From positions 1-55,941 of IMG/VR virus record IMGVR_UViG_3300036715_003593: 55,941 nt of DNA. One strand, given 5' to 3'. Positions 3,050 to 53,486 of the stretch are shown here, piece by piece; the first letter of the stretch is position 1; the number at the start of each line of letters is the position of its first letter. A model generated the notes under the pieces. The model saw only the letters and a program-made list of their open reading frames with translations, had not been told where the DNA came from and searched no databases. The DNA is from a virus. Lineage: Duplodnaviria; Caudoviricetes. Position numbers and translations under genes: made by a program.

Positions 3050-4255
3050 ATGAAACCAACCATACATATCCACATTAACGTACCGGTCGTTAAGACTCGG
3101 GATGCTGGTTTTTCCGGACCGTTGATTCCTCGTGCAGTGAAGTCGCAATTTAATAACGGGTTTCGTGCAGCTTTGAATTACGAAGGTAGAGAAGTTTGGA
3201 TAAGTCAGTATTCTTGGAAAACAGAAGCTGGGGCAAAGGAAGCCGCTAAAGAAGCCATACCAGCGGTTAGGGTGGGTAGATCCCCAAGTGTGCGCCCATC
3301 CTCAGCTGAAAACGCATCCGCCAAAGATGCCCTCTCCCTAGCTGAAGCCGAGCGCGAACTCAAAGCTGAATTGAAGCTCATCGAAGTCTTCAAGAAGTCC
3401 GGCAAACCTGTTCCGAAGGAAATGATCCAGCGTCAGAAGATGTTGGAGGAAGAAGTCGAGAAGCAGAAGTTTAAGACCGGTGATGCCTTCGCCGAATACA
3501 ACCCTCGCGAAGTAGCCAGGTTGAAGGATCAATTAAAGAAAGCGGACAATGCTCTTTCTTCCGGCAAAATTAATCCAGGTCAGCATTCCAAGTTAGTTGA
3601 GTCGATTGAAAAAGAGCTCAAAGGTTTCAGAGGGGACAAGACTAAGGATACAATTTACCGCTCCCGCTTTCTAAACGAGATCGGTCGCATTAGTCAGAAA
3701 CTTCGCCTCGGTCTCACTGGTGCCGAATTAACAAAGAAGACTGACGGTGAGCTGGAATCCTTGATGAAGGAATTGCAGAAACGTGAAAAGTCATACTCCA
3801 ATGATGCCTCCGTTCCGACCACTTTCTTTGAGGGGTCAGCTGGGCAGTTTAAATCGGAAGTTAAGAATCTCCATCCGGATGCTACTTTTACAGAGTCTCA
3901 GTTCCGCGGAGGATATATGGAAATTACTGCCAAGTCGAAAGGAGAGACGGTCGGTAGTGTTCAGGAGTTGCCCACCGGTAAATTCAGAGGCGGCTTTAGA
4001 AAGGATTTACAAAAGACAAAAGATGCCCTCTCCTCAGCTGAAAACGCACCCGCCAAAGATGCTGAATATCCTCAATGGTTGAAACATGCCAAGAACTCTT
4101 TGTCTCCAACAGACTTTGCAAAAGTGTTGCATGTCATGCAGACCCAAGGTGAAAATGCTGCGATGGTTATGACTAAGAAAATGCTTACCGGTGATGCCTA
4201 CTCAAACTATCCATCTTTCAAGGAAGAGGCCAGACGGAAAAAATCAGGTGACTAA
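3050..4255 (+). CDS. Putative internal-head polyprotein with IHIHI tag and periodic [TSA]-x-D|A junctions
   Basis: 401 aa Lys/Glu-rich ORF in the head module; junction Asp at residues 18, 93, 145, 200, 252, 325, 337, 382 and 401. Confidence 0.7.
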   Translation: MKPTIHIHINVPVVKTRDAGFSGPLIPRAVKSQFNNGFRAALNYEGREVWISQYSWKTEAGAKEAAKEAIPAVRVGRSPSVRPSSAENASAKDALSLAEAERELKAELKLIEVFKKSGKPVPKEMIQRQKMLEEEVEKQKFKTGDAFAEYNPREVARLKDQLKKADNALSSGKINPGQHSKLVESIEKELKGFRGDKTKDTIYRSRFLNEIGRISQKLRLGLTGAELTKKTDGELESLMKELQKREKSYSNDASVPTTFFEGSAGQFKSEVKNLHPDATFTESQFRGGYMEITAKSKGETVGSVQELPTGKFRGGFRKDLQKTKDALSSAENAPAKDAEYPQWLKHAKNSLSPTDFAKVLHVMQTQGENAAMVMTKKMLTGDAYSNYPSFKEEARRKKSGD

Positions 4256-4402
4256 ATTCTCAAAACTATCTCCAAGGCTAACATTGCCAAGAAGTTCAGA
4301 GAGGGAGACTGGGAAGCTATTCCAGTCTTGACTAAGTCTGGTTACTAGGGAGTTCGTGACCTAGCTTCAGGTAAGTGATTTACAGTTGTGGTGACAGAAT
4401 AA
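4256..4402 (+). pseudogene. Possible decayed terminal module of the polyprotein
   Basis: In-frame continuation ILKTISKANIAKKFREGDWEAIPVLTKSGY*GVRDLASGK*FTVVVTE* fills otherwise empty space. Confidence 0.4.
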
Positions 4403-4506
4403 ACAGTGGCATCAACATGGAAGGTGCTAAACGTCCCTGATCCATTTAGACTGCCCTTGGCAGAGAAACATTAGCCTCGATCAATATATAGAGAAAAGGA
4501 ATAGAC

Positions 4507-4941
4507 ATGAAAAAAATGCTTTTAGTATTAGCCTTGTTGTTTGTATCACTGAGTGTCGCAATCGCTGCTCCAACCTATCCATTCTCAAACCCGACTTACA
4601 TCCCCACCGCAGTTAGTGCCCCAGTCGCTTATACCGCTCCTGGCACCTACATCTTTACAGCCAACGGCATTTCAACTCTATCCATGCGAATTACCGGTAC
4701 ATGTACCTCTTTGTCAGGGGTGTTGCAAGGCACTAACGATGATACCAACTGGTCTTCTTTGACATTGCATCCAGTAACTGCTTCTGCCACAACAACCACC
4801 CCAGTCGTAGCAGTAGCTGCTGTCGGGTTTTGGCGGGCAAGTGTTGCAGGCTTTAAATCGGTACGGCTTAACATTACCGCATTGACAGCCACTTGCACGG
4901 TTGCCATGGCAGGTACACAAGCATACGGGTTAATGGAATAA
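4507..4941 (+). CDS. Hypothetical beta-rich protein with a Sec-type signal peptide
   Basis: MKK + hydrophobic stretch + AIA/A; RBS aagga. Confidence 0.7.
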   Translation: MKKMLLVLALLFVSLSVAIAAPTYPFSNPTYIPTAVSAPVAYTAPGTYIFTANGISTLSMRITGTCTSLSGVLQGTNDDTNWSSLTLHPVTASATTTTPVVAVAAVGFWRASVAGFKSVRLNITALTATCTVAMAGTQAYGLME

Positions 4942-4945
4942 CCAC

Positions 4946-6349
4946 ATGGCTACTCCGGCACGCAGACTGTTTCATACTGTTGAGCGCATCAGTGCAAGAC
5001 AGAGCTTGACACAAGAAGGCTACTTACTTTGTGAAGGTGTCCCAATCGCCCGTACTGGCGAGATGCTTTACGGGGGATCAGAGTTGGAAGGGGCAGACGG
5101 CAAACCGGTTGTTACCCCAAACGATGAAGGTCTTGTACGTATTGCCAGAGACGCAGATGAAGTTTTCCGTGCTGAAACGATTGCCAGTTTCAATGGAAAA
5201 TCAGTATCTGATGATCACCCCGAAGATGGCGCAATTGCTCCAAGCAATTGGCAAGAACGTACTGTTGGTATTGTACTCAATCCTCGCAGAGGTGAAGGAG
5301 AACAGCACGATCTTTTGTTGGCGGACTTGTTGATTACGGTTCCCTCAGCAATTGAGGCAGTACGTTCTGGCAAGCGCGAAGTAAGTTGTGGTTATGAAGC
5401 TGACTACGAGGAGGTGGATGTCGGACAGGGTAGACAAAAGAACATAATTGGTAATCATGTAGCGTTAGTCGAATCGGGTCGCTGCGGCTGGCGTTGTGCT
5501 ATCGGCGATCGTAAATTAGAGGAGAAACAAATGAGCAAGAAATTATCTTGGCTCGACCGTGCTAAAGCAGCTTTCCATTCGAAAGATGAAGAAGGCTTCA
5601 ATAAGGCAATGGAAGAAGCTAAAACTGGTGACGAGCTGGGTAGTGAGGGTGAAGAAAACGAGCAGCATATTCATATTCATATGAATAGCAATGGATCAAC
5701 TGATCCAGTTGTCCCAGCATTAGGTGACGAAGATCCTGAAATCAAGAACAATGACGACGATGAACTCGCTACTCATATTGCTCAGAACTCAGCGGAACAC
5801 GAGGCTTTTGCTTCCCGCCTCGCTGCTATTGAAGAGCAATTAGGTATCGGCGCGACTGACGAGATGCCAAGTGAAGAAGTTGAAGATGCTTTGGAAGCTG
5901 AAGCTCCAGTGGGCACAGGTGACAAAGCTCGAAAGTCGACCGACTCTGCATACATGGCTGATAGCTACAAGAATACAGTTGCTCTTGCTGAAATCTTGGC
6001 ACCTGGTATCAAAGTTCCGACATTCGACTTCGCGGCTAACCCGAAGAAAACCTTCAAGGATGTTTGCGGCCTACGCCGTCAAGCATTGGATGCAGCTTAT
6101 GCGCACCAGGATACACGCAACATGATCGAAGACATTATGGGTAGTAAAACCATTAATTTCAAGAACATGTCGTGTGATGCAGTGCGTACGGTTTTCAAAG
6201 CCGCAGGCTCAATCAAACGTGCTTCCAACAACGATGCTGCTCGCGGCAAAGGTGCTCTGGATACACAAACCAACCAACCTGCCAAGAAGCCAACGCTGCG
6301 TGATATGAACAAAGCAGCTGACGCCAAATGGCTTGATAAACAACATTAA
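4946..6349 (+). CDS. Prohead maturation protease/scaffold (DUF2213-like)
   Basis: EGYLLC..VPIARTG, DDHP, GKREVSCGY, IIGNHVALV..GRCG..CAIGD motifs; acidic scaffold-like C-terminal half. Confidence 0.85.
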   Translation: MATPARRLFHTVERISARQSLTQEGYLLCEGVPIARTGEMLYGGSELEGADGKPVVTPNDEGLVRIARDADEVFRAETIASFNGKSVSDDHPEDGAIAPSNWQERTVGIVLNPRRGEGEQHDLLLADLLITVPSAIEAVRSGKREVSCGYEADYEEVDVGQGRQKNIIGNHVALVESGRCGWRCAIGDRKLEEKQMSKKLSWLDRAKAAFHSKDEEGFNKAMEEAKTGDELGSEGEENEQHIHIHMNSNGSTDPVVPALGDEDPEIKNNDDDELATHIAQNSAEHEAFASRLAAIEEQLGIGATDEMPSEEVEDALEAEAPVGTGDKARKSTDSAYMADSYKNTVALAEILAPGIKVPTFDFAANPKKTFKDVCGLRRQALDAAYAHQDTRNMIEDIMGSKTINFKNMSCDAVRTVFKAAGSIKRASNNDAARGKGALDTQTNQPAKKPTLRDMNKAADAKWLDKQH

Positions 6350-6360
6350 GGAGAACTACC

Positions 6361-6885
6361 ATGGTTGCATTTTTGTATCGTATGGGAGCCGGTTTTGCAG
6401 GTGATGTAAACCGTACCCATCCTGTTTCAATTGAAGCAGACTTAATTCACGAACTGTCTCCACCCACCGCTTACGGTCAAGCTGTATTGATCGATCCTAC
6501 TTCACAAGGCGTTCGTCCTTTTGCAGCAGGCGATGTAGCAATTGACAAAGCTTACGGTATAATAGTTCGCACTTTCCCAACTCAACAAACTTCTGCCCCA
6601 ACTGGCAACTTCGCTCCTGCAGCATTGGGCGCCGCGACCCCTCCTTTGTCAGGTGTCATTGACGTATTGCGCTCTGGTTACATCATGGGCAAAGTACCTG
6701 TCGGTCAGACCTGTGTGAAGAATGGCGCAATGTACATCTGGGTTGGCGCAGCAGGTGGCGGTCACGTGCTTGGTGGTTTCGAAACGGTTGATGCCGGTGT
6801 AGATACTACTCCAGCTTTGACCAACGCAGTCTTCAACGGTATCCCCGATGCTGACGGCAATGTTGAAATTCAGTTTAACGTTTAA
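6361..6885 (+). CDS. Capsid cement/decoration protein
   Basis: Position between protease and MCP; YRMxAGFAGDVNR start and DADGNVEI end typical of such proteins. Confidence 0.7.
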   Translation: MVAFLYRMGAGFAGDVNRTHPVSIEADLIHELSPPTAYGQAVLIDPTSQGVRPFAAGDVAIDKAYGIIVRTFPTQQTSAPTGNFAPAALGAATPPLSGVIDVLRSGYIMGKVPVGQTCVKNGAMYIWVGAAGGGHVLGGFETVDAGVDTTPALTNAVFNGIPDADGNVEIQFNV

Positions 6886-6896
6886 GGGGAATCAAT

Positions 6897-7958
6897 ATGA
6901 TGACTTATGATGGAAATCGCGTTGTAGACGCATTGGGTACACAAGCTGGTAAGCAATTGCCAGCCGGTATGGTAACCCGTGATGGTAAAACTGTGGACTC
7001 CACAGGTGCCTTCCTGGTGGGTGAGTTGGAGCGTCTGGATCAGACGTTGCACATGCCTTTGGCTGCTGTTACTTTTGCGCGCGACATTGACTTGCGCGAA
7101 GACGTAACAATCGCAGACGAAGCATCCAGCTTCACCTTATCAAGCTTTGGTTCAGCTGGCGGTTTGGGTATAGGTAACGGTATCGGTAATGGCAAAGCTT
7201 GGATCGGTAAGACAACAGACCAGATTACCGGCGTGAGTGTTGACATCGCCAAGATTCCAAATCCTTTGGATCTGTGGGGTATGGAATTGAAGTATACTAT
7301 ACCTGAAATCGAAAGTGCAGCACGTCTGGGTCGCCCTGTTGACCAGCAAAAGTTCGAAGGTATGCAACTGAAGCACCAGATGGATATCGATGAACAAGTG
7401 TACATTGGTGACACAAGTAAGAAAACTAAAGGTATGGTTAACCATACTCTGGTTACTCCTACCGCTCTACCGAATGGTGTTGGTGGTTCAGCAACATGGG
7501 CAACAAAAACGCCTGACGAAATCCTGGCTGACGTAAACCTGATGTTGGTGACTACATGGAAGAACTCAGCATTGGCAGTCATGCCAGATCGTCTGTTGTT
7601 GCCTCCTAACCAGTTCGGCTATATTGCTACTCAAAAAGTATCATCTGCTGGTAACCTATCTATCCTGAAATATATCCTGGAAAACAACATCCTGGTAACA
7701 TCAGGTCAAGGTAAGTTGAATATCTTCCCCCTCAAGTGGCTACAAGGCGCTGGTGTGGGTGGTACATTGGGCACACCGGGCAACGATCGCGCAGTTGTGT
7801 ACTTGAAAGAGTACCAGCGCATTCGTTATCCAATGACAATGTTGCAACGTACTCCAATCCAGTACGACAGCATCTACCATAAGACGACTTACTATTGCCG
7901 TCTTGGTGGCGTCGAATTGGTCTATCCTGAAACAATGGGTTACTATGACGGTCTGTAA
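6897..7958 (+). CDS. Major capsid protein (DUF2184-like)
   Basis: GAFLVGELERLD, W..KTPDEILAD, YYCRLGGVELVYP motifs; 353 aa. Confidence 0.88.
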   Translation: MMTYDGNRVVDALGTQAGKQLPAGMVTRDGKTVDSTGAFLVGELERLDQTLHMPLAAVTFARDIDLREDVTIADEASSFTLSSFGSAGGLGIGNGIGNGKAWIGKTTDQITGVSVDIAKIPNPLDLWGMELKYTIPEIESAARLGRPVDQQKFEGMQLKHQMDIDEQVYIGDTSKKTKGMVNHTLVTPTALPNGVGGSATWATKTPDEILADVNLMLVTTWKNSALAVMPDRLLLPPNQFGYIATQKVSSAGNLSILKYILENNILVTSGQGKLNIFPLKWLQGAGVGGTLGTPGNDRAVVYLKEYQRIRYPMTMLQRTPIQYDSIYHKTTYYCRLGGVELVYPETMGYYDGL

Positions 7959-7977
7959 CAAGTAGTGTGGTACATGA

Positions 7978-8002
7978 AGGGGTTGGGCAACCTACCTCTT
8001 TG
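7978..8002 (+). terminator. Possible weak intrinsic terminator after the MCP gene
   Basis: aggggttgg-gcaa-cctacctc hairpin followed by ttt. Confidence 0.35.
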
Positions 8003-8041
8003 TGTAACATATTAAAACAACCCCCTTTAGGAGAAACAAAA

Positions 8042-8473
8042 ATGTCTAAAACCGTAACAATGATCCTAGCTACTAAAGTAATTATTACTGACAATGGGCA
8101 CGTTCCTCATTCCTTTGGTCCTGGCATTTGCGAAGTGCCAGCTGAGTTTGCTGATCATTGGTATATGAAGGCTCATGGCGCGGTAAAGTATGACCCCGCT
8201 GCTAAAGCTGCTGAACTGTTGAAAGAAGCTGCAGCACTTGAAGAAGCTGCCAAGATTGAAGCTGAGAAAGCTGCCAAGATTGAAGCTGAGAAAGATGCCA
8301 AGGTTGAAGCTGAGAAAGATGCCAAGGTTGAAGCTGAGAAAGATGCCAAGGTTGAAGCTGAGAAAGATGCAGCAGAAAAAATGGCTCCACTGTCAACAAG
8401 TACAACGCCGACAGTGGAAGCAACCTCAGCAACGGTTGCTGCACCTGCTTCTCAACCATGGGCAAAGAAGTAA
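8042..8473 (+). CDS. Head-associated hypothetical protein with EAEK(A/D)AK repeats
   Basis: ATG 8042 with ggag RBS; A.HWY..AH motif; directly downstream of MCP. Confidence 0.7.
   Translation: MSKTVTMILATKVIITDNGHVPHSFGPGICEVPAEFADHWYMKAHGAVKYDPAAKAAELLKEAAALEEAAKIEAEKAAKIEAEKDAKVEAEKDAKVEAEKDAKVEAEKDAAEKMAPLSTSTTPTVEATSATVAAPASQPWAKK
8249..8368 (+). repeat. Five tandem 24-bp repeats (gccaagRttgaagctgagaaagMt)
   Basis: Read directly from the sequence. Confidence 0.95.
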
Positions 8474-8479
8474 TTTATC

Positions 8480-8950
8480 ATGACTGCCACCTCCGCAACT
8501 TTGCGAGCTCACTTTCCAGAATTCGCCAACGTTATCGACTACCCGAATGCTCAGATCGAGTTCTGGTTAAGCATTGCGGTACAGATGCTTAACGCGGGTC
8601 GATGGGGTACGATGCTGGATGCTGGTGCCGAGCTATATGCTTGCCACCATATTGCCTTGGAAGCTCGAGATATGGTAACGGTAGCTGCTGGTGGATCACC
8701 TGGACAGAATACCGGACCGGTTAATTCCAAATCAGTAGACCGAGTGTCCATCGGCTACGATACCGGTGCGGCTGCGGAAGAACGTGGCGGGCATTGGAAT
8801 TTGACCACATATGGAACTCGGTATCTACGTTTCGCAAGAATGTTCGGGGCTGGCAGTTTACAGGTTGGAGTAGATGGACCGATTCCACCATTGAGTGCGT
8901 CTTCAGCTTGGGGCACACCTTGGTATGTGGCACCCAATCCGAGCAACTGA
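8480..8950 (+). CDS. Head-tail adaptor (DUF4054-like)
   Basis: FPEFA...YP, SKSVD.VS..YD, WNLT.YG motifs. Confidence 0.8.
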   Translation: MTATSATLRAHFPEFANVIDYPNAQIEFWLSIAVQMLNAGRWGTMLDAGAELYACHHIALEARDMVTVAAGGSPGQNTGPVNSKSVDRVSIGYDTGAAAEERGGHWNLTTYGTRYLRFARMFGAGSLQVGVDGPIPPLSASSAWGTPWYVAPNPSN

Positions 8951-9435
8951 TGGCTAAGCCGCTCGAGTACGATGGGCTTCCGGATTTGCTGAGAAACATA
9001 AAGAAGCTGACCAAACAGGAAGTTTTAATAGGTGTACCGTCTGATCACGCTCACCGTAAAGATGAAGATGAAGTTTTAAATAATGCTTCGTTGGCGTACT
9101 TGCATGAACATGGTTCACCTGTTAATAACCTACCAGCTCGTCCGTTTTTAGAGCCAGGTATTAAGGTTGCGAAAGATAAGATTTCGAAACACCTCGGTTT
9201 GGCCGCTGAAGCAAGTCTCAGTGGGCAGAAGGAAAAAATGGGTCAGCAATTAGTATTGGCTGGACTAACTGCTCAGAATGCGACAAGGGCGAAGATCAAT
9301 TCAGGGGTGGAGCCAGCCTTAGCACCTTCCACGATTGCTGCGAGGCAACGAAGAGGTAGAACCGGAACAGTGCCTTTGATCGATACTGGTCAATTGCGAA
9401 ATTCAATTATATATGTAGTCAAGGAGAAAAAGTAA
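8950..9435 (+). CDS. Neck/tail-completion morphogenesis protein
   Basis: HEHG...N.PARPFL.PG and PLIDTGQLRNSI.Y motifs; TGATG overlap. Confidence 0.75.
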   Translation: MAKPLEYDGLPDLLRNIKKLTKQEVLIGVPSDHAHRKDEDEVLNNASLAYLHEHGSPVNNLPARPFLEPGIKVAKDKISKHLGLAAEASLSGQKEKMGQQLVLAGLTAQNATRAKINSGVEPALAPSTIAARQRRGRTGTVPLIDTGQLRNSIIYVVKEKK

Positions 9436-9632
9436 TGGCAAAGATACATGTGCATGTGCATACAAACGATGCGTTCGATGAAGCTGCTTCTCAAGCCCTC
9501 CAACTTATTAACAAAGCCGGTGATATCTTGTACAAAGCTAATTTGCAAAATACAAAAGATCCAAAAGTGGCCGGAAGAGAAGCAGTAATCCGGTCACTTC
9601 TCGAAGCCAAGACTCTCGCTCAAAAAGTTTAA
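9435..9632 (+). CDS. Small helical protein with IHVHVH-TND tag (putative internal head protein)
   Basis: aaggag RBS, TAATG overlap; N-terminus MAKIHVHVHTNDA. Confidence 0.7.
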   Translation: MAKIHVHVHTNDAFDEAASQALQLINKAGDILYKANLQNTKDPKVAGREAVIRSLLEAKTLAQKV

Positions 9633-9635
9633 TCC

Positions 9636-10007: not shown

Positions 10008-10008
10008 C

Positions 10009-30440: not shown

Positions 30441-31026
30441 GTTTTACCAGCCTGATAATATTTCCATCTATTATTTTATCATATCCACGGTGCTTATGTT
30501 TATCACTTAGAACACTTTTGATCGCTTTAAAATAAGAACGATCCGGCAAGAAAACAGTTTTAAGGAAAGCATCTAAATCCTCAACTGTGCCACCTGAATC
30601 TTGAAAAAAGTCCAAGGTTATCTGTCGAATTGATCTTGGAGGATTTCCAGAAAAATACAACTCTCTGGATGCGAAATCTGCTTTCAATCTGTTGATGGCA
30701 CTTTCCGCTAACCCATATGTCATCTTCGGTAACAATCGTTGGTATTGGTCAGGGGCATCTGAAAAATAATCATCCGATCCAAACCAGTAACCTGAGCCTT
30801 CTGGATATTCTCCGAGCAATCTGTTTTGTGCCCGATGATCATAAATCTCGATTTGAGTTTCGGGAAGAATGAAACCGTAGACAGCTGACCGAATCCATAA
30901 AGTAAAACCCTGAATAGCGGCCAGCTCATCCAAATGTCGAAACATCTTCGAACCTGAATAAATTTCCCGAGCTGTGCTACCCTCAATTTTTGTTTTGGGG
31001 CAGGTTATAAGTAGATTGGGTTTCAT
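30427..31026 (-). CDS. DUF6884/YaaA-like protein
   Basis: ITC.K.K...AREIY.G..F...W.RSA.YG.I.P...I..YD pattern. Confidence 0.55.
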   Translation of the reverse strand: MKPNLLITCPKTKIEGSTAREIYSGSKMFRHLDELAAIQGFTLWIRSAVYGFILPETQIEIYDHRAQNRLLGEYPEGSGYWFGSDDYFSDAPDQYQRLLPKMTYGLAESAINRLKADFASRELYFSGNPPRSIRQITLDFFQDSGGTVEDLDAFLKTVFLPDRSYFKAIKSVLSDKHKHRGYDKIIDGNIIRLVKHETL

Positions 31027-31940
31027 TTACGCTTCGGTATCAACGACATGAACTCTGCGCGAGTTGCTGCCTCAGCCATGAAGAGACCTCGCATCGAAGA
31101 TGTTGTGGTCATTGTGCCATGCACACGAGCACCGCGAGAGCTCATACAAGTATGTTCACATTGAACTACTACAGCTACCCCTCGCGCTTCCAGATGCTCT
31201 GCCAAGGCATCTGCGATTTGATTAGTCAAACGTTCCTGAACCTGAAGGCGGTGGCTGAATGCCTTTACCAACTTTGGTATCTTGGATAGACCAACAATGC
31301 GACCATTTGGTATGTACGCAACATGGGCAACTCCGTGGAAACGAGCCATGTGGTGCTCACAGAAACTTTCCACAGGGATGCTATCGATAATAATCATCTC
31401 ATCACAACCTTCTGCACCGTCCGTGAAGGTCTTGAACAAGCCAGCGATGTCGGTGGTATAACCATCGAACCATTCCTGATATGCCTTGGCTACTCGCTTC
31501 GGGGTTTCTAGTAAGCCTTCACGGTTTGGATCCTCGCCGATGAACTGAAGCAGGCGACGAATATTGTCTTCGATGCTGCTTTCTGAATCGCCTTCCCAAG
31601 GAAACACCACCCAATCATATGCCTCTCTGTAAATCGGATCGGTCTTATCGATTAGAGCATAAAATGATTTGCCTGGATACATATCGCAATAACGTTCCAT
31701 AGTTGCGCCGGAGTCAATAATGTCGTCGACAAAAATGTCCGCCTCTTCTGGGGTGAGCGCAATCCTGATGTCCAGGTGCGTATAGTTAGCAGCAGCTATC
31801 ACCGCATATAAAGCAGGTATACCACCTCGAGGAATTGCGTAAGCTCGAATATGATCTTTGCCATTCATCTGGATCTTGCTGGCAACGATTACCGCTAGAT
31901 CCATAATATCGTTGTGGTTTAAAATTGTTTTTGCGGACAT
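31023..31940 (-). CDS. folE: GTP cyclohydrolase I fused to an N-terminal purine phosphoribosyltransferase-like domain
   Basis: REGL.ETP.RV, S.CEHH, GLSK, QVQERLT, H.CM..RG; N-terminal IPRGG, VDDIIDSGAT, WVVFPWE. Confidence 0.9.
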   Translation of the reverse strand: MSAKTILNHNDIMDLAVIVASKIQMNGKDHIRAYAIPRGGIPALYAVIAAANYTHLDIRIALTPEEADIFVDDIIDSGATMERYCDMYPGKSFYALIDKTDPIYREAYDWVVFPWEGDSESSIEDNIRRLLQFIGEDPNREGLLETPKRVAKAYQEWFDGYTTDIAGLFKTFTDGAEGCDEMIIIDSIPVESFCEHHMARFHGVAHVAYIPNGRIVGLSKIPKLVKAFSHRLQVQERLTNQIADALAEHLEARGVAVVVQCEHTCMSSRGARVHGTMTTTSSMRGLFMAEAATRAEFMSLIPKRK

Positions 31941-31942
31941 GG

Positions 31943-32368
31943 TTATTCCTTTATAAATGATGCTGCACATTTGCGAGTTTCTTCGAATCGCACCGAGATA
32001 AGAACTGCCCCTGTTCCAGCCAATTGAACTGGTCCAACCACTTCGACCAAATACTTGGCGAGATTTTCTGCGGTAGGATTGAAAGGGACTATTACTGTCC
32101 CGACCGGATCGATCTCCGGCAAGGTCTTTGACCATGGATCATTCTCCCACAAAAGGAATTTATGATCCCAGTTATCTTCGAGCCATTGAGCCAGCAACGT
32201 TTTCATCACCGAAAAGTCAAGAACCCGCCCTACTGAATCCAAACCATCGGAAGTAATTGTAAAATGAACACGGCCGTTATGACCATGCATCATGCTGCAT
32301 TTTGATTCGTGTTGGTATACCCGATGACCGTACGAAAAGTCATGATATCTATCTGCGGTGAAAGTCAT
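31943..32368 (-). CDS. queD: 6-carboxytetrahydropterin synthase
   Basis: GHR...KC..MHGHN, DF, WDH, PTAENLA, EET motifs. Confidence 0.9.
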   Translation of the reverse strand: MTFTADRYHDFSYGHRVYQHESKCSMMHGHNGRVHFTITSDGLDSVGRVLDFSVMKTLLAQWLEDNWDHKFLLWENDPWSKTLPEIDPVGTVIVPFNPTAENLAKYLVEVVGPVQLAGTGAVLISVRFEETRKCAASFIKE

Positions 32369-33138
32369 GCTAATACTCCTTTGCGATATGAATCATAGTT
32401 GGAAGATAAAGGGAGATTCATCAAACCCTCAGTGTGTGCGCGCAGCACCAACGGATCAGGCTGACCAGCATCCTCAAATCCTTTGGCGCGCAGCACATTG
32501 GCATGATTCATGTCGGTGGGAGGATACTTGCCATCGTAACTTGTATGAGAATAGGCTAGTGCTTCCCAGCAGCCGGGCAATGAGCGCGCCATGTCCACAG
32601 TTTCAGCTTTCGATAAATTCATCAGTGGGGTATGGATAAAGATTTCAGGAGTTCCCCTGTGGTCATGGCCAAGGGCGGTATTGATATATTGCTCAGTAGT
32701 ATAAATGAAGTTTGGGCGACAATCATCGTAGTTAGCACCGTCCATTTGGCACACGCCGGTCATAAGATTAGGAATGCCAAGAGCTTCAGCCCGGTTGGCT
32801 GCGATCGTCAAAAAAAGAGCGTTGCGCATTGGCACAAAAGTCAGCTCTCTGCGATTGCCGATTTTGTTACCCATCTGTTCAGCGTTCTCATATTGCTCCA
32901 AACTTGAATTGCTGGTTAAAGGAGACATGGAGATCAAGCAATTCGGAACCTCGACAATTTCATGGGAGGATACGTTAGCCAGCTGTGCCACCTTTATTGC
33001 AGCCTCAATTTCGATAGCATGGCGCTGGCCATAATCAAAAGTGATGGCATGCACTTCAGAGTACTGTTGCTTTGCCAAAAAGAGGCAAGTGGTTGAATCC
33101 TGCCCTCCCGATAAGACAACTAAAACCTTTGTTTTCAT
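32365..33138 (-). CDS. queC: 7-cyano-7-deazaguanine synthase
   Basis: LSGGQDSTT, FDYGQRH, FVP.RN, Y.DCR, TPL..LSKA motifs; canonical C-terminal Zn cysteine cluster appears altered. Confidence 0.88.
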   Translation of the reverse strand: MKTKVLVVLSGGQDSTTCLFLAKQQYSEVHAITFDYGQRHAIEIEAAIKVAQLANVSSHEIVEVPNCLISMSPLTSNSSLEQYENAEQMGNKIGNRRELTFVPMRNALFLTIAANRAEALGIPNLMTGVCQMDGANYDDCRPNFIYTTEQYINTALGHDHRGTPEIFIHTPLMNLSKAETVDMARSLPGCWEALAYSHTSYDGKYPPTDMNHANVLRAKGFEDAGQPDPLVLRAHTEGLMNLPLSSNYDSYRKGVLA

Positions 33139-33139
33139 T

Positions 33140-33847
33140 TCATTCGACTCCTATGATTTTGTGAACTTGTAATTGTAAAAGGTAACCATATTTTAACACA
33201 CTTTCTGTTATTGCCTTTAGATTAGATAGATTCTTTTCATCATCTTGCTCATCGGCAGGTTGCAGATAAATCGGACCATCAAATCCTGCCGGTGGGCGTG
33301 CGAGGCGAGGGTTTGCGGGGTGATCGAGTGCTGACAGGGGTAATCCATCATCCTCTGCTAAGTCTCCCGCTTTGCCCACGTATTTAAGGGCGGAGATATA
33401 CGGTGCCAAGTTTTTATTAATTGTGCCAGTCTTTGGACTACAAACCACTGTGATTCCATCATAAGGCAAATCGCGATATAATGATCCATTGGTTTCAATT
33501 TGAACGTCGAAGTTGAATTCCAATAAAATGGAAACGGTTGGTTTAACGTTTTGCCGAAGGGGCTCCCCGCCAGTGATTACCACTAACTGTCTTTCCTGAC
33601 CAGGCTCCCAATCTTCCGGCAAAAGAGAATTGACTTCTTCCAACAGTTGACGGGGGGAAAGCCAAACACGCTCCGAGGTATAATTTGTATCACAAAGAGG
33701 GCAAGCCAAGTTACAGCCAGCTAGACGGATGAAAACTGCTCGCCTGCCAGTAAAAGGACCTTCTCCTTGAATGGTATTGAAAACACTATGGACTGCTAAA
33801 ATTCCAGAGTCATCGTGAGTGGATTTTTCTATTTTTTGCGTATTCAT
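33140..33847 (-). CDS. queE: 7-carboxy-7-deazaguanine synthase (radical SAM)
   Basis: TIQGEG, CNLAC..CDT, ITGGEP, IETNG, SPK, LQVHK motifs. Confidence 0.92.
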   Translation of the reverse strand: MNTQKIEKSTHDDSGILAVHSVFNTIQGEGPFTGRRAVFIRLAGCNLACPLCDTNYTSERVWLSPRQLLEEVNSLLPEDWEPGQERQLVVITGGEPLRQNVKPTVSILLEFNFDVQIETNGSLYRDLPYDGITVVCSPKTGTINKNLAPYISALKYVGKAGDLAEDDGLPLSALDHPANPRLARPPAGFDGPIYLQPADEQDDEKNLSNLKAITESVLKYGYLLQLQVHKIIGVE

Positions 33848-33868
33848 AAGATCTCCGTAGGTGTATCC

Positions 33869-33896
33869 ATTATAACACAATCTCCTTGGTACCCAA
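33869..33896 (-). promoter_or_regulatory. Extended -10 sigma70-like promoter for the que/dpd operon
   Basis: TGTGTTATAAT on the - strand just upstream of the queE RBS. Confidence 0.5.
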
Positions 33897-41225: not shown

Positions 41226-41450
41226 TTAGAACGACCATGACCCCGACCATGACCGCGACCATGACCATGACCATGACTGTGACCCCGACAGTGACCATGA
41301 CCCCGACCGTGACCGCGACCGCGACCATGACCGCGACCGCGACCATGACCCCGACCGTGACCCCGACCGCGACAGTGACCCCGACAGTGACCCCGACAGT
41401 GACCCCGACAGTGACCGTGACCATTGTTCTCGCAACATAATGGCGTTCAT
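41226..41450 (-). CDS. Ser-X (X = R/W/G/L) dipeptide-repeat protein
   Basis: TAATG coupling to the upstream gene selects this frame; hexamer repeat NNG-TCR. Confidence 0.6.
   Translation of the reverse strand: MNAIMLREQWSRSLSGSLSGSLSGSLSRSGSRSGSWSRSRSWSRSRSRSGSWSLSGSQSWSWSWSRSWSGSWSF
41233..41422. repeat. Degenerate hexanucleotide repeat (about 30 units)
   Basis: gaccat/gaccgc/gacccc/gacagt units on the + strand. Confidence 0.95.
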
Positions 41451-47433: not shown

Positions 47434-47639
47434 AACTGAGGATTGTTAATCTGCCAGACCATTCTACTTTGGTTTATCTGGAGCAGAAGGCCAACGGAAA
47501 AATATATGCCCTCCAGATCATATCCACTTGGGCAGAGCAGCGTAACTGCATAAACGGGTGGCGAAAGTTAATTTATGATCATATCCGCCAGGGTCGTCGT
47601 TACATCAGAAGGAGTATTGAAAATGATAGCAAAGATTAA
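47430..47639 (+). CDS. Hypothetical protein
   Basis: TTGA overlap; part of a gene chain. Confidence 0.45.
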   Translation: MKLRIVNLPDHSTLVYLEQKANGKIYALQIISTWAEQRNCINGWRKLIYDHIRQGRRYIRRSIENDSKD

Positions 47640-47844
47640 ACAATGGTTCAAAGATGCAGATGAAAAAGATCTCGCTCGGCTCAAGAGAAGTGGTTATAAT
47701 TATGCAGCCGGTAGATTGTTGAAGGAGGGTAATGCAGCTATTACCCCTTTGTGTTATGAATCGGATAACCCTTTCGATGGAAACGAATTCGATATCGGTA
47801 TAGTGGAAGCGTTGCTGGATTTTGAGAGGCGGGGTAAGAAATGA
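47623..47844 (+). CDS. Hypothetical protein
   Basis: aaggag RBS; GY.YAAG.LL...FD.G. Confidence 0.6.
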   Translation: MIAKIKQWFKDADEKDLARLKRSGYNYAAGRLLKEGNAAITPLCYESDNPFDGNEFDIGIVEALLDFERRGKK

Positions 47845-48053
47845 ATCTTAATGGTTGCCATAACAGACCACACTTGAAACATTTCGCAACTGTTCAAATT
47901 GGATGGATACCTAGCTTGCATCCTATCCAGACTCGGTACCCGCTTTTGAAATCGATCCCCGACCCCATGTCGAAGGATTGCCAGTATCAGAAGCTGAGGA
48001 AAGACGATCCGAAGTGTGCTGGATGCAAACATTTAGTGGAGGAAGTGAAATGA
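47841..48053 (+). CDS. Small Cys-rich hypothetical protein
   Basis: GCHNRP...MS.DCQY...D..C.GC. Confidence 0.6.
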   Translation: MNLNGCHNRPHLKHFATVQIGWIPSLHPIQTRYPLLKSIPDPMSKDCQYQKLRKDDPKCAGCKHLVEEVK

Positions 48054-48400
48054 AAACATTTGATCAATATCAAGCCGCGCGCGATACTCTTGTGGCAGCA
48101 GAGATCCAAGATCTACTTAAAGGTGACTACTCACCATTTAATCGTGATAATTTCGAACAGTATTTGAGAGAACTAGCGGAAGACGACGAACTGAATAAAA
48201 CAATGTTTCGTTATGCGGAAGCCTATTCTCAGCAAATCGAGCCTCATCATATGAACCTAGCACTACTGGGCGAATCTGTAATAATCGGACTTCGCAAGTA
48301 TTGGGAATCGCAAGCAGCACTGAGGGCTGATGCAGGAATTCCTAGTGTGGTTGATATGATGGGAGACGATCGCGGAACACATGGATGTTATGGAAGGTAG
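48050..48400 (+). CDS. Hypothetical protein
   Basis: ggagg RBS; ATGA overlap. Confidence 0.6.
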   Translation: MKTFDQYQAARDTLVAAEIQDLLKGDYSPFNRDNFEQYLRELAEDDELNKTMFRYAEAYSQQIEPHHMNLALLGESVIIGLRKYWESQAALRADAGIPSVVDMMGDDRGTHGCYGR

Positions 48401-48792
48401 TATGAAAGTATCGCATTATGTTCAAATCATTTATATTCGCTATCTCAAAGGTCTGCGAAAATGAAGCGGGTCTGGTTAATCTGGATGCTGGCGATGAATC
48501 CATTGGGATCTGCTGAAATGAATATCTTCTGCATTGGTGCACCTTTATACAATAAACCATGCAGTTATAACGTAGAAGATATAAAATGCGATCCAGTGGT
48601 GCTAACTAAAGAAAGGGTGAGACGAAAATGAAACGATTGATAGACGTCATGTTGTTTTATGGCATTAGTCCTAGCATGTTAGTGCTTATTGTAGGTTTAA
48701 CAGGCGTGTTACTTTTCAGATACCTTTAAAAGGTGGCAGCGAATGCTAGGGTCTGTATATCGATGAATAACTTTAAATCATAGGGATAAATT

Positions 48793-49158
48793 ATGAGTAA
48801 TCAAGAATCAGCAGTGGATCAAGAAGCGTTAGCTCGTCATAAAAAAGTGCTCGAAGACTTCAGGGGACTCGAGCATCACATGTCAGCTGAATTGCGTGCT
48901 AACCTTGAAGCCACCATCCCGCAGGAAGCGCGTGAGCACCTGTTAACTGTTTGCCTCCTGGCTATCCAATACGGTCGCAGTCTTGAGCAGCATGATATGA
49001 TTGCTCAAGTTGCCAAGGCTCCGGAACACATGCAAGTTTTGATCAAAGAGGTATTGACCGGTACAACTGAGCGTAAAATAATCATCGGTGAAACAAACGC
49101 AGGTGCTTCATCTCTAGTGCGTCAGCTCATGGCCAATATGGATCGCACTAAACATTAG
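48793..49158 (+). CDS. Hypothetical protein
   Basis: 121 aa ORF with RBS. Confidence 0.6.
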   Translation: MSNQESAVDQEALARHKKVLEDFRGLEHHMSAELRANLEATIPQEAREHLLTVCLLAIQYGRSLEQHDMIAQVAKAPEHMQVLIKEVLTGTTERKIIIGETNAGASSLVRQLMANMDRTKH

Positions 49159-49229
49159 GATCTACTGCCGGTTGACCTGTTCGATCCTTCTCGGGTATCT
49201 TAATCCCATTAAATTATCTGAGCCACGAT

Positions 49230-49850
49230 ATGTCCGAAGAATCCATCGCTGAATTAAGGAAACGGCCTAAGTTGCCATACGAGGATGCCGCCGTCAAGGC
49301 TGGCATGCAGTATGAGCGCCGCCGTCATATCCTTGCAGAAAGAGTGAAGGGGGTTAGCTTCCCGAAGATTGCTGCTGAATTGGGTCTAACCCAAGGTTAT
49401 GTGTTTAAGCAATATAAGCTCGCTCTAAAGTCAGCCATCACCGAAGATGTGTCGCAAGTCCGTAAAATAGAACTTGCTCGGTTAGATGAATTACAAGAAG
49501 AAGTTATCAAGATCATGCATTCTTTCAATCCGATGGTTAGTGGTGGCAGAGTGGTCTATGATGTAGTGGAAGGTGAAGTAGAACCTCGAGATGGGGAGGA
49601 TGAAGTAACTGAGCGCGTTCTGAAAAAGCTCGAAGACCCTAAAGTTAAGTTTGACGCAGTTAACACGGCTCTACGTATCATGGATCGCCGTGCTAAGTTA
49701 CTGGGACTGGATGCCCCTGTCAAAGCCGAATTGTCCGGTCCAGATGGTGGTCCGATTCAACAATACACCGTACCTAGACCAATGACCCGCGAAGAGTTAG
49801 TTGCAGAAGCAGCTGCACGCGGATTACCAACTACTATTTTTAAAATATGA
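49230..49850 (+). CDS. terS: Terminase small subunit
   Basis: HTH (G.SF..IA..LG), EL.RLD.L, RRAKLLGLDAP.K.ELSGPDGGPI. Confidence 0.75.
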   Translation: MSEESIAELRKRPKLPYEDAAVKAGMQYERRRHILAERVKGVSFPKIAAELGLTQGYVFKQYKLALKSAITEDVSQVRKIELARLDELQEEVIKIMHSFNPMVSGGRVVYDVVEGEVEPRDGEDEVTERVLKKLEDPKVKFDAVNTALRIMDRRAKLLGLDAPVKAELSGPDGGPIQQYTVPRPMTREELVAEAAARGLPTTIFKI

Positions 49851-50260
49851 ATCTACCTGTTTATAAATTTGTACTCTTTACAACCTGCGCCTTGCTCTTG
49901 GCCAAGTGTGCCACTCAAGAAGTTCGGGCGGAAGGTATCTATGAGGAAAATCGATACGAGGTCAGCACTCTTCGGAATGCTGACGGGTCTTATGCTCGCT
50001 CAAAGAAAGTGGCCAGAGAGTTCCAAAAAATTCACCCTTGCCCGTCCACCGGATTACAGACTGGCGCTTGTCCAGGTTGGGCAAAAGACCATGTTATTCC
50101 GAGAGCATGTGGTGGAATAGATGCTGTCTGGAATATGCAATGGTTGCCAGATGACATTAAACATTCTGTTGGAGATCATGCCAAGGACAGCTTTGAGAGG
50201 AAGATTTATTCTTTATCCGATCTCCCGATGCCTAACTGCAAGTCTGCTAAAGTTGAATGA
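49847..50260 (+). CDS. HNH endonuclease-like protein with a hydrophobic N-terminus
   Basis: HPCPSTG...GACPG...DHVIP.ACGG.D...NMQW. Confidence 0.7.
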   Translation: MNLPVYKFVLFTTCALLLAKCATQEVRAEGIYEENRYEVSTLRNADGSYARSKKVAREFQKIHPCPSTGLQTGACPGWAKDHVIPRACGGIDAVWNMQWLPDDIKHSVGDHAKDSFERKIYSLSDLPMPNCKSAKVE

Positions 50261-51651
50261 AGCCCTCAGACGTTGACATTCTCGAGCAGCTAGCTATTGC
50301 AGAAGCTCGATGGAGCTTCTATGCATACCGCCAGTACATTAACCCGAAACTGAAACTAGGTTGGTGGCAGCGAGAGAGTGCTTACGAGCTGCAACGGTTC
50401 TATGAAGACCTGATCGCAGGGAAACGCCCGAGACTGATTATCGAAGCCCCTCCTCAACATGGTAAGAGTTTACTTATTGTGGACTTCATATCCTGGCTAG
50501 CTGGCAGGCACCCCGAACTCCGTACCATTTACACCTCTTTCAGCGAGCGCCTTGGAGTACGTGCCAACTTAAGATTACAGCGCACATATGCTTCAGATAA
50601 ATACAAAAAGACTTTCCCAGATACTAAAACAGGGGCTACAGTCAATCGTGATTTGATTGAATACGAAGGTGCGGATGGCTACTTCCGTAACACTACTGTT
50701 CGAGGTAGCATTACCGGTGAAGGTTTGGATCTGGGGGTTATAGACGATCCGATTAAAGGTCGTGAACAAGCGCGCAGTGCTACCGTACGTGATGCAACAT
50801 GGGATTGGCTGACCGACGATTTCATGACCCGCTTTGCAGATGATGCAGGTCTGCTTATTATTTTAACTCGGTGGCACATTGATGACCCAGTCGGGCGCTT
50901 AAAAGAGATAGACCCTAACATTCGCTGCGTTTCACACCCTGCCATTGCCACAGAGGATGAACAGTTCCGTAAGAAGGGTGAGCCGCTTTTCCCCGAACAT
51001 AAGAGTCTGGAATTCTTGCTGGGTATCAAAAAGATTATGGCAGCGTCTTCATGGGAGTCGTTGTATCAGCAGCGTCCGTTTATCGAGGATGGCGAATTCT
51101 TTAAGCCAGATATGATTCCAATTGTGGATGCCATCCCTGCGGGCATTAAACAGATTACCCGAGCATGGGATCTGGCCGCAACCAAGGATGGAGGAGACTG
51201 GACTGTTGGATTTAAGTTTGGCAAACTACCAGACGGTCGTGGTATTATTCTGGATATAGTGAGATTCCAAAGAGGTCCAGATCAGGTTCGATTAGCATTG
51301 AAAAATACCGCTGACTTAGATGGCAAGCAGGTTAAGATTAGAGGTCCACAAGATCCTGGTCAAGCCGGTAAAGATCAAGCTCAACAGTTGACTATGCTGC
51401 TTACTGGTTATAAGGTAGAATTCAAAACGGTATCCGGAGACAAGACCATCCGAGCCGAAGGATTTGCCTCGCAAGCGAACGTGGGTAATGTGGTCATGTT
51501 GCGTGGATCTTGGAACCATGCTCTAATAGAAGAGTTGAGGTCTTTCCCGAATGGAGTACATGATGACCAGGTGGATGCTGGCTCCGATGCCTTCAATGAC
51601 TTAATGGGATCACCTGACGTGTTGTCGATGTGGGAGAAATTGGGTAAATAA
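50257..51651 (+). CDS. terL: Terminase large subunit
   Basis: PPQHGKS Walker A, IDDP.K, TRWH.DD, WDLA, HDDQVDA nuclease motif. Confidence 0.92.
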   Translation: MKPSDVDILEQLAIAEARWSFYAYRQYINPKLKLGWWQRESAYELQRFYEDLIAGKRPRLIIEAPPQHGKSLLIVDFISWLAGRHPELRTIYTSFSERLGVRANLRLQRTYASDKYKKTFPDTKTGATVNRDLIEYEGADGYFRNTTVRGSITGEGLDLGVIDDPIKGREQARSATVRDATWDWLTDDFMTRFADDAGLLIILTRWHIDDPVGRLKEIDPNIRCVSHPAIATEDEQFRKKGEPLFPEHKSLEFLLGIKKIMAASSWESLYQQRPFIEDGEFFKPDMIPIVDAIPAGIKQITRAWDLAATKDGGDWTVGFKFGKLPDGRGIILDIVRFQRGPDQVRLALKNTADLDGKQVKIRGPQDPGQAGKDQAQQLTMLLTGYKVEFKTVSGDKTIRAEGFASQANVGNVVMLRGSWNHALIEELRSFPNGVHDDQVDAGSDAFNDLMGSPDVLSMWEKLGK

Positions 51652-51654
51652 GGG

Positions 51655-51683
51655 TTGCCCCACTGAAAATCCTGACTTACAAT
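51655..51683 (+). promoter_or_regulatory. Sigma70-like promoter TTGCCC-17-TACAAT upstream of the portal gene
   Basis: Near-consensus boxes with 17-nt spacing. Confidence 0.6.
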
Positions 51684-51689
51684 TGCCTG

Positions 51690-51785
51690 GCAGTGAAAGC
51701 CGAGGGGATCGATCTCGGATTGTCCAAAGGGGGGCAAGTCGCAGGTTTGCGTCAAACCGAGTACCACCTCACGCCGGTTCACTGC
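51690..51785 (+). ncRNA. Structured multi-hairpin leader of the structural operon
   Basis: gcagtgaa/ttcactgc closing stem around three hairpins (51700-51718, 51720-51737, 51744-51758). Confidence 0.45.
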
Positions 51786-51804
51786 TTCAAATTTGAGGAT
51801 CATA

Positions 51805-53274
51805 ATGGCTAAACGTGACATTACCAAGACTGTAGACAAAGCTTTCGCAACTGACGAAGCCGCACGCCTTGCTGCCACAGTCAATGATTCGTTCAACAAC
51901 TTCGCACAGAAGATGGGTGTCGGTGCAGACAACCCTCTTTCCACTTCTTCTTACGGCTTCAATCCAGTTACGCGCGTTCGTACCTTGCTCGAATGGATCC
52001 ATCGCGGCTCATGGGTGGGCGGAGTAGCGGTTGACGTAATTGCAGATGATATGACTCGCGAAGGAGTCGATCTGGACGGTGAGCTCGACCCTGATGATAT
52101 TTCCCGTTTGCACCGCGAAGCCAATCAACTGAACATCTGGGCACAGGTTCGCGATACTGTTGCCTGGTCGCGTCTTTATGGTGGATGTCTGGCTGTCATG
52201 TTGATAGACGGTCAGGATTCTTCTACCCCCTTGCGATTAGATACCATCGGCAAAGGCGATTTCAAAGGCTTGCTAGTTTTAGACCGTTGGATGGTTGAAC
52301 CGTCCATGGGTGATCTGGTAACAGAATACGGTCCTCATTTAGGTCTGCCAAAATATTACAAAGTCACTGCGGATGCGCCAGCCTTGCCCCGCATGAAGAT
52401 TCATTATTCCCGTTGTATTCGATTGGAAGGCGTTCGCTTGCCCTATTGGCAACGGGTCATGGAAAACCTTTGGGGTATTTCCATTTATGAGCGTATATAT
52501 GACCGCATGCAAGCCTTCGATTCAGCAACGACTGGTGCAGCCCAATTGGTTTACAAAGCATACATCCGGACTTACAAGATCAAGGATATGAAAGAGGTAG
52601 TTGCTGCCGGTGGTCCTGCTTTGGATGGCTTAGTTAAGTATACAGAAATGATGCGTCGCTTCCAAGGCGTGGAAGGTATTACCTTAATGGACGCCGATGA
52701 TGAGTTCGAAGGCCATTCACATACCGCCTTCTCTGGCTTGTCTGATGCCTTGACCCAGTTCGGCCAACAGCTCTCCGGCGCGCTTCAAATCCCGCTAGTT
52801 AGATTGTTTGGCCAATCTCCTGCTGGCTTCAGCACCGGTGAAACAGACCTACGCAATTATTACGACAACGTCAAGACTCAGCAGGAGCGAGAACTTGGCG
52901 TACCACTGGTTACCATTTTCCGTGCCTTGGCGGCATCTTGTGATATCAAACTTCCCGACGATTTCGGGGTAACCTTCCGATCATTGTGGCAACTGAGTGA
53001 TACTGAAAAATCGACTATTGCTCAAACTACTTCCGGTTCGATTCTGGCTGCTGAAAGTGCTGGTATAATTGATCATGCGACTGCGCTCAAAGAGTTGAAA
53101 CAATCAAGTCGTATCACTGGGGTGTTTACTAATATCACTGAAGAGATGATCCAGGATGCTGAAGGTGAAGAAGCTCCGGACGCAAGCGACCTGATTGTTA
53201 ATCCTCCGGTTGATCCAGCTCAGAAGATTGGGGATACTCGGTGGCAACGTATTCTTAAAAAGGTAAGACTATGA
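51805..53274 (+). CDS. Portal protein (DUF1073-like)
   Basis: VD.IA.DMTR, W.RLYGG, H.SR, IPLVRLFGQSPAG..TGE.D..NYYD. Confidence 0.88.
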   Translation: MAKRDITKTVDKAFATDEAARLAATVNDSFNNFAQKMGVGADNPLSTSSYGFNPVTRVRTLLEWIHRGSWVGGVAVDVIADDMTREGVDLDGELDPDDISRLHREANQLNIWAQVRDTVAWSRLYGGCLAVMLIDGQDSSTPLRLDTIGKGDFKGLLVLDRWMVEPSMGDLVTEYGPHLGLPKYYKVTADAPALPRMKIHYSRCIRLEGVRLPYWQRVMENLWGISIYERIYDRMQAFDSATTGAAQLVYKAYIRTYKIKDMKEVVAAGGPALDGLVKYTEMMRRFQGVEGITLMDADDEFEGHSHTAFSGLSDALTQFGQQLSGALQIPLVRLFGQSPAGFSTGETDLRNYYDNVKTQQERELGVPLVTIFRALAASCDIKLPDDFGVTFRSLWQLSDTEKSTIAQTTSGSILAAESAGIIDHATALKELKQSSRITGVFTNITEEMIQDAEGEEAPDASDLIVNPPVDPAQKIGDTRWQRILKKVRL

Positions 53275-53486
53275 AAAACACACATATCCATGTTCACGTT
53301 GGAACGAAAGATGGCGACAGAGAAGATTCTTCCAATATCACTTCTTTGAAAGGTGATTTGGTTCGGCTTGCTTCAAAAATATCCGCCTTGGGTTCTACCA
53401 CTTCAAATCCGCAATTGAAAAAAGCCTGCAAGGGGGCAGAGCAGAAAGTGGATGAAGCACGGTCGCTTCTCCATGATGCCCAATAA
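53271..53486 (+). CDS. Small helical protein with HIHVH-VGTKD tag (putative internal head protein)
   Basis: ATGA overlap with portal; N-terminus MKNTHIHVHVGTKD. Confidence 0.7.
   Translation: MKNTHIHVHVGTKDGDREDSSNITSLKGDLVRLASKISALGSTTSNPQLKKACKGAEQKVDEARSLLHDAQ

Follow-up and report, generated by a model that had tools for sequence, protein, structure and literature searches.

A histidine strand shared by N-terminal tags and a DUF2213 protease-scaffold linker: a candidate cleavable capsid-targeting propeptide

How proteins are chosen for packaging is known in detail for very few tailed phages, mainly T4. The question is raised by the virus record IMGVR_UViG_3300036715_003593, which was examined over its entire length of 55,941 nt (the window). 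A strand of alternating His and aliphatic residues, H-[IV]-H-[IV]-H or I-H-I-H-I, is present in four of its proteins, at the N-terminus in three and in the linker of a DUF2213 prohead protease-scaffold fusion in the fourth. What is this strand for? A preliminary description of the window had proposed that it is a portable tag which loads cargo into the prohead through the scaffold's copy and is then clipped off. We consider the chance slightly better than even that the His strand is a cleavable N-terminal capsid-targeting propeptide that would act through the scaffold's matching strand.

The first tagged protein, P0001, is a 401-aa K/E-rich cassette polyprotein (3050..4255, plus strand; starts MKPTIHIHINVPVVKTRD). 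Its tag covers residues 1-18 (nt 3050-3103), with the core I-H-I-H-I at residues 5-9. P0003 is a 65-aa protein encoded among the neck genes (9435..9632, plus strand; starts MAKIHVHVHTND), and its tag, residues 1-12 (nt 9435-9470), ends T-N-D↓A, the arrow marking the putative cut. P0004, of 71 aa, is encoded between the portal and MuF genes (53271..53486, plus strand; starts MKNTHIHVHVGTKD), with a tag of residues 1-14 (nt 53271-53312) that ends T-K-D↓G. The fourth copy is internal (EQHIHIHMNSNGSTD; 5660..5704, plus strand): it forms residues 239-253, E-Q-H-I-H-I-H-M...S-T-D, in the linker of P0002, the 467-aa DUF2213 prohead protease fused to a scaffold (4946..6349, plus strand). Translation placed all four motifs where the preliminary description had put them, and the three tags were indeed N-terminal and closed by a T-x-D-type site. 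A Shine-Dalgarno-like purine-rich stretch lies 7-9 nt upstream of each of the three tagged ORFs.

A six-frame scan of the window for H-phi-H-phi-H returned four matches. Three were the sites above and the fourth was in a minus-strand non-coding frame; the tag at 3050 has only the shorter I-H-I-H-I. Chance predicts about 0.0014 sites of the form H-[IV]-H-[IV]-H (83 ORFs, 17,930 residues, His 1.7%; ORF calls here and in the loci of the relatives were our own and crude). None of 5000 within-protein shuffles gave four or more motif-bearing proteins, and none of 5000 gave three or more N-terminal motifs. The recurrence is real and not due to chance. Codon usage varies among the copies (CAT/CAC, ATC/ATT/GTG/GTT), so the repeat is a protein-level feature, and a motif acting at the DNA or RNA level was ruled out by the same differences.

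What follows the tag differs from protein to protein, as the preliminary description had claimed: the similarity between P0003 and P0004 is limited to the tag, and relatives carry tags on unrelated proteins. No Pfam or PHROG family was matched by P0001, P0003 or P0004, and no polyvalent-protein domain was recognised in them (Pfam, PHROG; Protein Atlas). For P0001 the Protein Atlas gave no usable match, and its Atlas model had a predicted template modelling score (pTM) of 0.23. The label "cargo" is an interpretation for the 65-aa and 71-aa proteins, which might just as well be small components of the core or scaffold. The P0004 family had six members in a search of 5.8 billion proteins, and all six have the His strand followed by a T-K-D site; its placement beside MuF is retained in L005, a near-identical relative whose flanking genes are 91-99% identical. 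Tagged proteins of 63-64 aa, similar to P0003 in tag and size, are encoded in L011, L013 and L015.

P0001 carries eight [T/A/S]-x-D↓[A/T] sites, with Asp at 18, 93, 145, 200, 252, 325, 337 and 382, a density of 2.0 per 100 aa vs 0.21 in the window proteome. Its residues 257-364 match (E 8e-14) the module that immediately follows the tag in L059. The homolog in L005 (L005:10001-10756) is a mosaic with breaks at D↓A junctions; it keeps the tag and one cassette, and the other cassettes are replaced or rearranged. Rebuilding by whole cassettes with borders at x-D↓A junctions is what one would expect of a protein in an arms race.

The closing aspartate and the linker of the protease-scaffold fusion

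Thirty-six tag candidates were defined by regular expression among the window and its relatives. Five with acidic residues or an atypical ending were set aside, leaving 31 credible tags. The putative propeptides are 9-22 residues long with the consensus M-x-K-H-I-H-[IV]-H-[IV]-G-T-K-D, and end in [T/V]-[K/R]-D plus a small residue: Thr is at P3 in 23 and A/S/G/T at P1' in 27. No acidic residue stands ahead of the first Asp, which lies 0-12 residues past the His core.

A matching site was found in the capsid N-terminal region in 53 of 67 distinct proteins of the relatives, with or without the linker strand. This strongly conserved junction is typically R-[AV]-x-T-[RK]-D↓[GAS], with the longer form R-[AV]-x-T-[RK]-D↓[GAS]-[LM]-x-T-[FY]-D. 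In the window's major capsid protein (6897..7958, plus strand; Pfam PF09950, E 1.4e-76) the copy reads V-T-R-D↓G, with V-T-R-D at residues 26-29 (T-R-D, nt 6975-6983). In the window's clade a second copy about 30 residues downstream is present and the first copy is lost. Because the same motif closes the conserved capsid N-terminal peptide, the T-x-D at the end of the tag is probably a protease site, and DUF2213 proteases are predicted to cut after Asp in a T-[K/R]-D context. In the E217 paper the first 65 capsid residues are described as invisible and possibly cleaved; the accessible parts of the E217 and Pa193 papers yielded no cleavage data.

The regularity of the closing Asp bears on one alternative, namely that mature virion proteins or non-virion proteins keep the His strand as a working N-terminus, for example as a Zn/Ni-binding or membrane-active peptide, and that its likeness to the linker is convergent. 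Peptides of alternating His and aliphatic residues do bind metals (PMC8431744), and cleavage of the present tags is a prediction. But the first Asp always falls within the same short distance of the strand, in a T-[KR]-D↓small-residue context identical to the capsid junction, none of the 31 tags has an internal acidic residue, and the tags are strictly associated with the linker insertion. We regard a retained N-terminus as barely plausible.

The linker belongs to a protein whose assignment is clear. P0002 matched Pfam PF09979 at E 1.7e-45 with 155.5 bits, above the gathering score (cut-off 22), and PHROG head maturation protease families matched it too. An AlphaFold2 (AF2) monomer model has a protease domain at about residues 1-190 and a helical scaffold at about 271-466, both with a predicted local distance difference test score (pLDDT) >90. 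H91, S147 and H171 are invariant in 69 protease sequences; by analogy we take them to be a candidate catalytic triad. Residues 230-269, His strand included, have pLDDT <50, and such a disordered linker would leave the strand available for pairing in trans. When six proteases were aligned, the strand stood out as an insertion within the acidic linker; four proteases have it and the other two show a gap. A T-G-D lies upstream of it at residues 227-229 (nt 5624-5632), and another S-T-D lies at residues 331-333 (nt 5936-5944), just ahead of the conserved scaffold domain. Since T-G-D and S-T-D bracket the linker strand, each His strand would become a free peptide of 9-25 residues after maturation. 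Among the 69 proteases of alignment A2, 48 carry the exact motif AEILxPG, and 43 of these have a T-x-D no more than 30 aa before it.

These sites could also be read as belonging to a propeptide that is directed at the protease, for docking or for latency until the head is sealed, and is not an address at all; the proteins would then enter the head by other means, or never. Every tag is closed by a putative cleavage motif, the linker copy is likewise flanked by cleavage-type sites, and protease and strand reside within one polypeptide. However, the polyprotein and capsid junctions have the cleavage motif and no His strand, so the strand is not needed for protease recognition, and the tag is the sole feature common to otherwise unrelated proteins. 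Docking on a scaffold-fused protease would, moreover, in practice target the prohead too. A role confined to the protease is in our judgement quite unlikely.

Tag and linker strand among relatives

A tblastn search of GenBank phages with the three tagged proteins and a 40-aa linker segment gave nothing useful and no tagged-protein homologs, and relatives were therefore collected through the protease. The resulting 86 sources comprise the window, five GenBank phages and 80 IMG/VR loci, and include a duplicate of one contig (L002, L005) and near-copies. Protease identity between the window and the closest GenBank phages is only 30-41%.

The linker His strand was found in 35 of the 86 DUF2213 sources, commonly as T-H-[IV]-H-[IV]-H-x-G or Q-H-I-H-I-H-M-P-G. 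Credible N-terminal tags on the head-gene strand were present in 13-14 of the 35 linker-positive sources (L051 counted, L069 doubtful), several of the untagged ones being short fragments, vs 1 of the 51 linker-negative sources, itself doubtful. A relaxed four-residue motif gave an opposite-strand background of 6 matches in linker-positive and 10 in linker-negative sources, and for this reason tags were judged by position, subsequent Asp site and context. The alternating His/aliphatic heptad pattern of designed peptides of the IHIHIQI type was found in the window sites and in the tags of the relatives alike.

In a protease tree built from the protease and scaffold domains with the linker excluded, each of the four linker-positive lineages includes tagged members and the three linker-negative lineages have none. 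Down to 34-45% protease identity the two elements are retained jointly, and lineages without the linker insertion lack both. Two isolated phages have both elements, Burkholderia phage BgManors32 (gp73) and Edwardsiella phage vB_EpM_ZHS (ZHS_5); neither element is present in Burkholderia phage Magia, Bordetella phage IFTN9 or Pseudomonas phage PB1. PB1 was considered as an experimentally studied stand-in and set aside, as its protease has no His strand and no tag was found in the 18 kb of its head/tail region examined. Also rejected were the sequences MVKLHVH and MPKIHVH that start a conserved post-capsid gene (L006, L071). They were judged to belong to a folded family and not to be tags, because linker-negative relatives have the same family without the His residues. 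The count of tagged proteins per phage differs widely; L103 and L089, from one IMG/VR contig, have at least four tagged ORFs (72, 92, 142 and 145 aa) within about 6 kb.

Co-occurrence would be explained equally well if tag and linker strand never touched and both bound a third site, such as the capsid inner face, the portal or MuF. The tag would then still be a cleavable capsid-targeting signal, with the shell or portal as its receptor. The position of the 71-aa tagged gene between portal and MuF agrees with this, as does the existence of linker-positive phages without tags, and in a PB1-like phage a scaffold hairpin binds beneath the capsid vertex (PMC11456595; the Pa193 protein is here assumed to be a DUF2213 homolog). 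Among capsid and portal features, none was found to track the linker strand, the capsid junction being the same with and without it. The flank charges also differ. The net charge of the tag flanks is +1 to +4 in 31 of 31 tags. In 36 of 37 distinct linkers the flanks, counted over ten residues to either side, carry a net negative charge, the mean being -4.1. Opposite charges fit heterotypic, charge-complementary pairing of the two strands better than competition for one site. A shared third receptor is, on balance, unlikely.

The association was also approached from the tag. A degenerate DNA pattern encoding M-x-K-H-I-H-[IV]-H-[IV] was used to scan IMG/VR, and a decoy was made by replacing the His codons with Gln codons. 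The His pattern was found in 20 stretches of 19 contigs. Of its 18 unique peptides, 16 start an ORF of at least 45 aa and 14 are then followed by [TV]-x-D; for the 15 unique decoy peptides the corresponding numbers are 2 and 0. It is only gene-likeness and context that tell His-tag from decoy matches. Eight of the ten new tag-bearing contigs hold a DUF2213 protease in a protease profile search, the other two being an estimated 29% and 16% complete, and all eight proteases have the linker strand. The remaining matches were three on known linker-positive contigs, four spurious short frames and two short contigs that were left out.

The 31 credible tags stand on small helical proteins of 63-77 aa, K/E-rich polyproteins made of cassettes separated by x-D↓A junctions, LPD3-domain proteins, and proteins of 455 aa (no known family) and 290 aa. 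The LPD3-domain proteins, of 173-177 aa, occur in L004, L006 and L068 (Pfam E 1e-27 to 8e-30). Polyvalent-protein domains, LPD3 included, have been predicted to be packaged and injected, and their solo forms adjoin structural genes (Iyer et al. 2017, PMC5512222). Delivery by the tag gains support here, because the LPD3 passengers belong to a class predicted to be delivered with the DNA. In the linker-negative relative L083 the portal is fused to a PBECR1 nuclease, which is a covalent route to the same job.

A second motif, approximately W-x-E-x-x-H-P-R-x(2-4)-G-x-F-x-x-G-G-G, was seen directly behind the Asp of the tag in many tagged proteins (L004:9238-9762, L006:9187-9720, L068:9232-9753, L008:2712-3071, L051:8894-9232, and tagged ORFs of L086, L095, L100, L101 and L102). 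It also occurs untagged, at the portal/PBECR1 nuclease junction of L083 (L083:6839-8713) and in a NUDIX-headed polyprotein (L015:1664-3259), and may serve as a linker or as another delivery signal.

A possible loading mechanism and comparable systems

In the mechanism that we propose for the capsid-targeting propeptide, the basic-flanked tag would pair with the His strand, flanked by acidic residues, of the disordered protease-scaffold linker. The association would be a charge-complementary beta-strand pairing, possibly with Zn2+ bridging the His faces, and the tagged protein would thereby be incorporated in the scaffold core. The protease would then cut after the Asp of the [T/V]-[K/R]-D that ends each tag, and also to either side of the linker strand, at the N-terminal junction of the capsid protein and at the borders of the polyprotein cassettes. 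Small His peptides would be released, and the mature proteins would stay free in the head. Encapsidation, cleavage after Asp, contact between the strands, a role of metal and injection into the host are thus all predictions from sequence comparison.

Several observations weigh against this reading. The AF2 monomer shows the His strand simply as disordered. Acidic linkers are general in the family and the basic P2 residue is part of the motif, which makes the charge evidence weaker. The linker label requires only about two changes on the protease tree, so that the co-occurrence rests on 2-3 independent events and not on 86. L049, L071, L079 and L085 are linker-positive and untagged despite 10 kb of flank on each side. 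Linker-positive phages of this kind imply that the linker strand must have a role of its own, and the likeliest is self-association of the scaffold, which the tagged proteins would exploit. Raw matches to the tag pattern are not above the decoy (His 20, Gln decoy 26), and their count was dropped as evidence of enrichment. In the literature, as far as its accessible parts go, we found no virion proteomics for BgManors32 or vB_EpM_ZHS, nor any statement of a DUF2213 protease cleaving after Asp.

The preliminary description had taken the capsid-targeting sequence (CTS) of T4 internal proteins IPI-III, removed by gp21, as its model. The comparative evidence bears its proposal out in part, supporting a portable tag, a protease-site-like end, a matching strand in the scaffold and the analogy with T4; homology to the T4 CTS is not supported. 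No sequence similarity was seen (T4 proteins were not compared directly), and the protease is of the DUF2213 family rather than gp21. The T4 prohead protease cuts after Glu, and we know of no internal copy of the targeting sequence in the T4 scaffold. In the present phages cleavage is predicted to follow the Asp of T-[KR]-D, and the alternating His strand of the tag recurs within the scaffold. The T4 internal proteins have only the targeting sequence in common, which directs them into the scaffolding core; it is a short N-terminal peptide on diverse head-internal proteins and ends at a prohead protease site (PMC3012670). The tags of the present phages are likewise short N-terminal peptides on diverse proteins, with a putative protease site at their end. 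Passengers of the window type are also diverse and are changed by cassette replacement. By analogy, the phage tag system appears to work like the T4 CTS and is not homologous to it.

Other loading systems are likewise similar in part. Encapsulin cargo-loading peptides are short and portable and load cargo into an HK97-fold shell; they usually stand at the C-terminus, attach straight to the shell and stay in place, whereas the phage tag is N-terminal and predicted to be removed. The propeptides of ejection and inner-body proteins in SPN3US and other giant phages of the phiKZ group are long and are not one common short tag. These phages have T=27 capsids and a different protease family. Many of their head proteins are trimmed by the prohead protease at a short consensus and packaged with the DNA (PMC7411985, PMC10052503). 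MuF and portal effector fusions and polyvalent proteins carry the same kind of passenger, for example LPD3 (Iyer et al. 2017, PMC5512222). In those fusions the passenger is covalently joined to a structural protein, whereas here it is encoded by a separate gene with a small, putatively removable tag.

A chemical precedent for the pairing exists among synthetic peptides, for which, to our knowledge, no natural role has been described. The phage strands, compared with these 7-mers by sequence alone, follow the same alternating His/aliphatic logic, and the P0001 tag contains I-H-I-H-I-N-V. The designed peptides IHIHIQI and IHVHLQI assemble into parallel beta-sheets, with Zn2+ joining the His residues of neighbouring strands (PMC8431744). 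A more far-reaching extension, which we hold to be possible but doubtful, is a natural "histidine zipper": tags and linker copy would form a small, possibly Zn2+-bridged cross-beta core that meters unrelated cargo and is dissolved by excision at T-K-D. If true, this would be a functional, reversible amyloid-like step in virus morphogenesis, and would offer a portable, self-removing packaging tag of 10-15 residues. The link to the zinc amyloids of IHIHIQI makes the binding chemistry directly testable with peptides.

We found no description of a His-strand tag in the literature covered, subscription journals being outside that coverage. The proposed system would amount to a packaging rule readable from sequence: a tag of 9-22 residues, a matching scaffold element and a shared cleavage motif. 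Packaged and possibly injected proteins would become predictable for a whole group of uncultivated and temperate myoviruses. Among the predicted passengers, the fast-changing cassette and LPD3-domain proteins are good anti-defence candidates. For the DUF2213 proteases, an uncharacterised family, we also propose that cutting occurs after Asp in T-[K/R]-D. Should the tag prove sufficient, foreign proteins could be loaded into HK97-fold capsids by means of a very small handle that removes itself.

Head module and other genes of the window

The window phage is a contractile-tailed myovirus of 56 kb, and its head module resembles the E217, XM1 and Pam3 type in Pfam and PHROG matches. The module contains genes for terminase, portal, MuF, the DUF2213 protease-scaffold fusion, a cement protein (Pfam PF22758 / PF23982), capsid, neck, sheath and tube. 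The portal protein gene (51793..53274, plus strand; Pfam PF06381, E 5.5e-97) is directly upstream of the 71-aa tagged gene, and a MuF-like head morphogenesis protein gene (53492..54259, plus strand; Pfam PF04233, E 3.6e-16, PHROG 324) is directly downstream of it.

L005 lacks the genes that the window has between MuF and the polyprotein; upstream of its 71-aa gene there are large fibre-like ORFs instead. Between the polyprotein and the protease the window has a 144-aa ORF (4507-4941) with a signal-peptide-like N-terminus and no family; it is 94% identical in L005, and its location is odd for an exported protein. Both ends of the record cut ORFs, at 55675-55941 (89 aa, open at 3') and at 3-2741 (912 aa, open at 5'). 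The latter has a PHROG tail-protein match, and the two frames differ when the record ends are simply joined. On the minus strand, GTP cyclohydrolase I with a fused N-terminal extension, QueC and a radical-SAM protein are clustered at 31023-33880, which points to a 7-deazaguanine DNA modification pathway, i.e. an anti-restriction lifestyle. A 74-aa ORF at 41226-41450, also on the minus strand, contains the repeat SLSGSLSGSLSGSLS.

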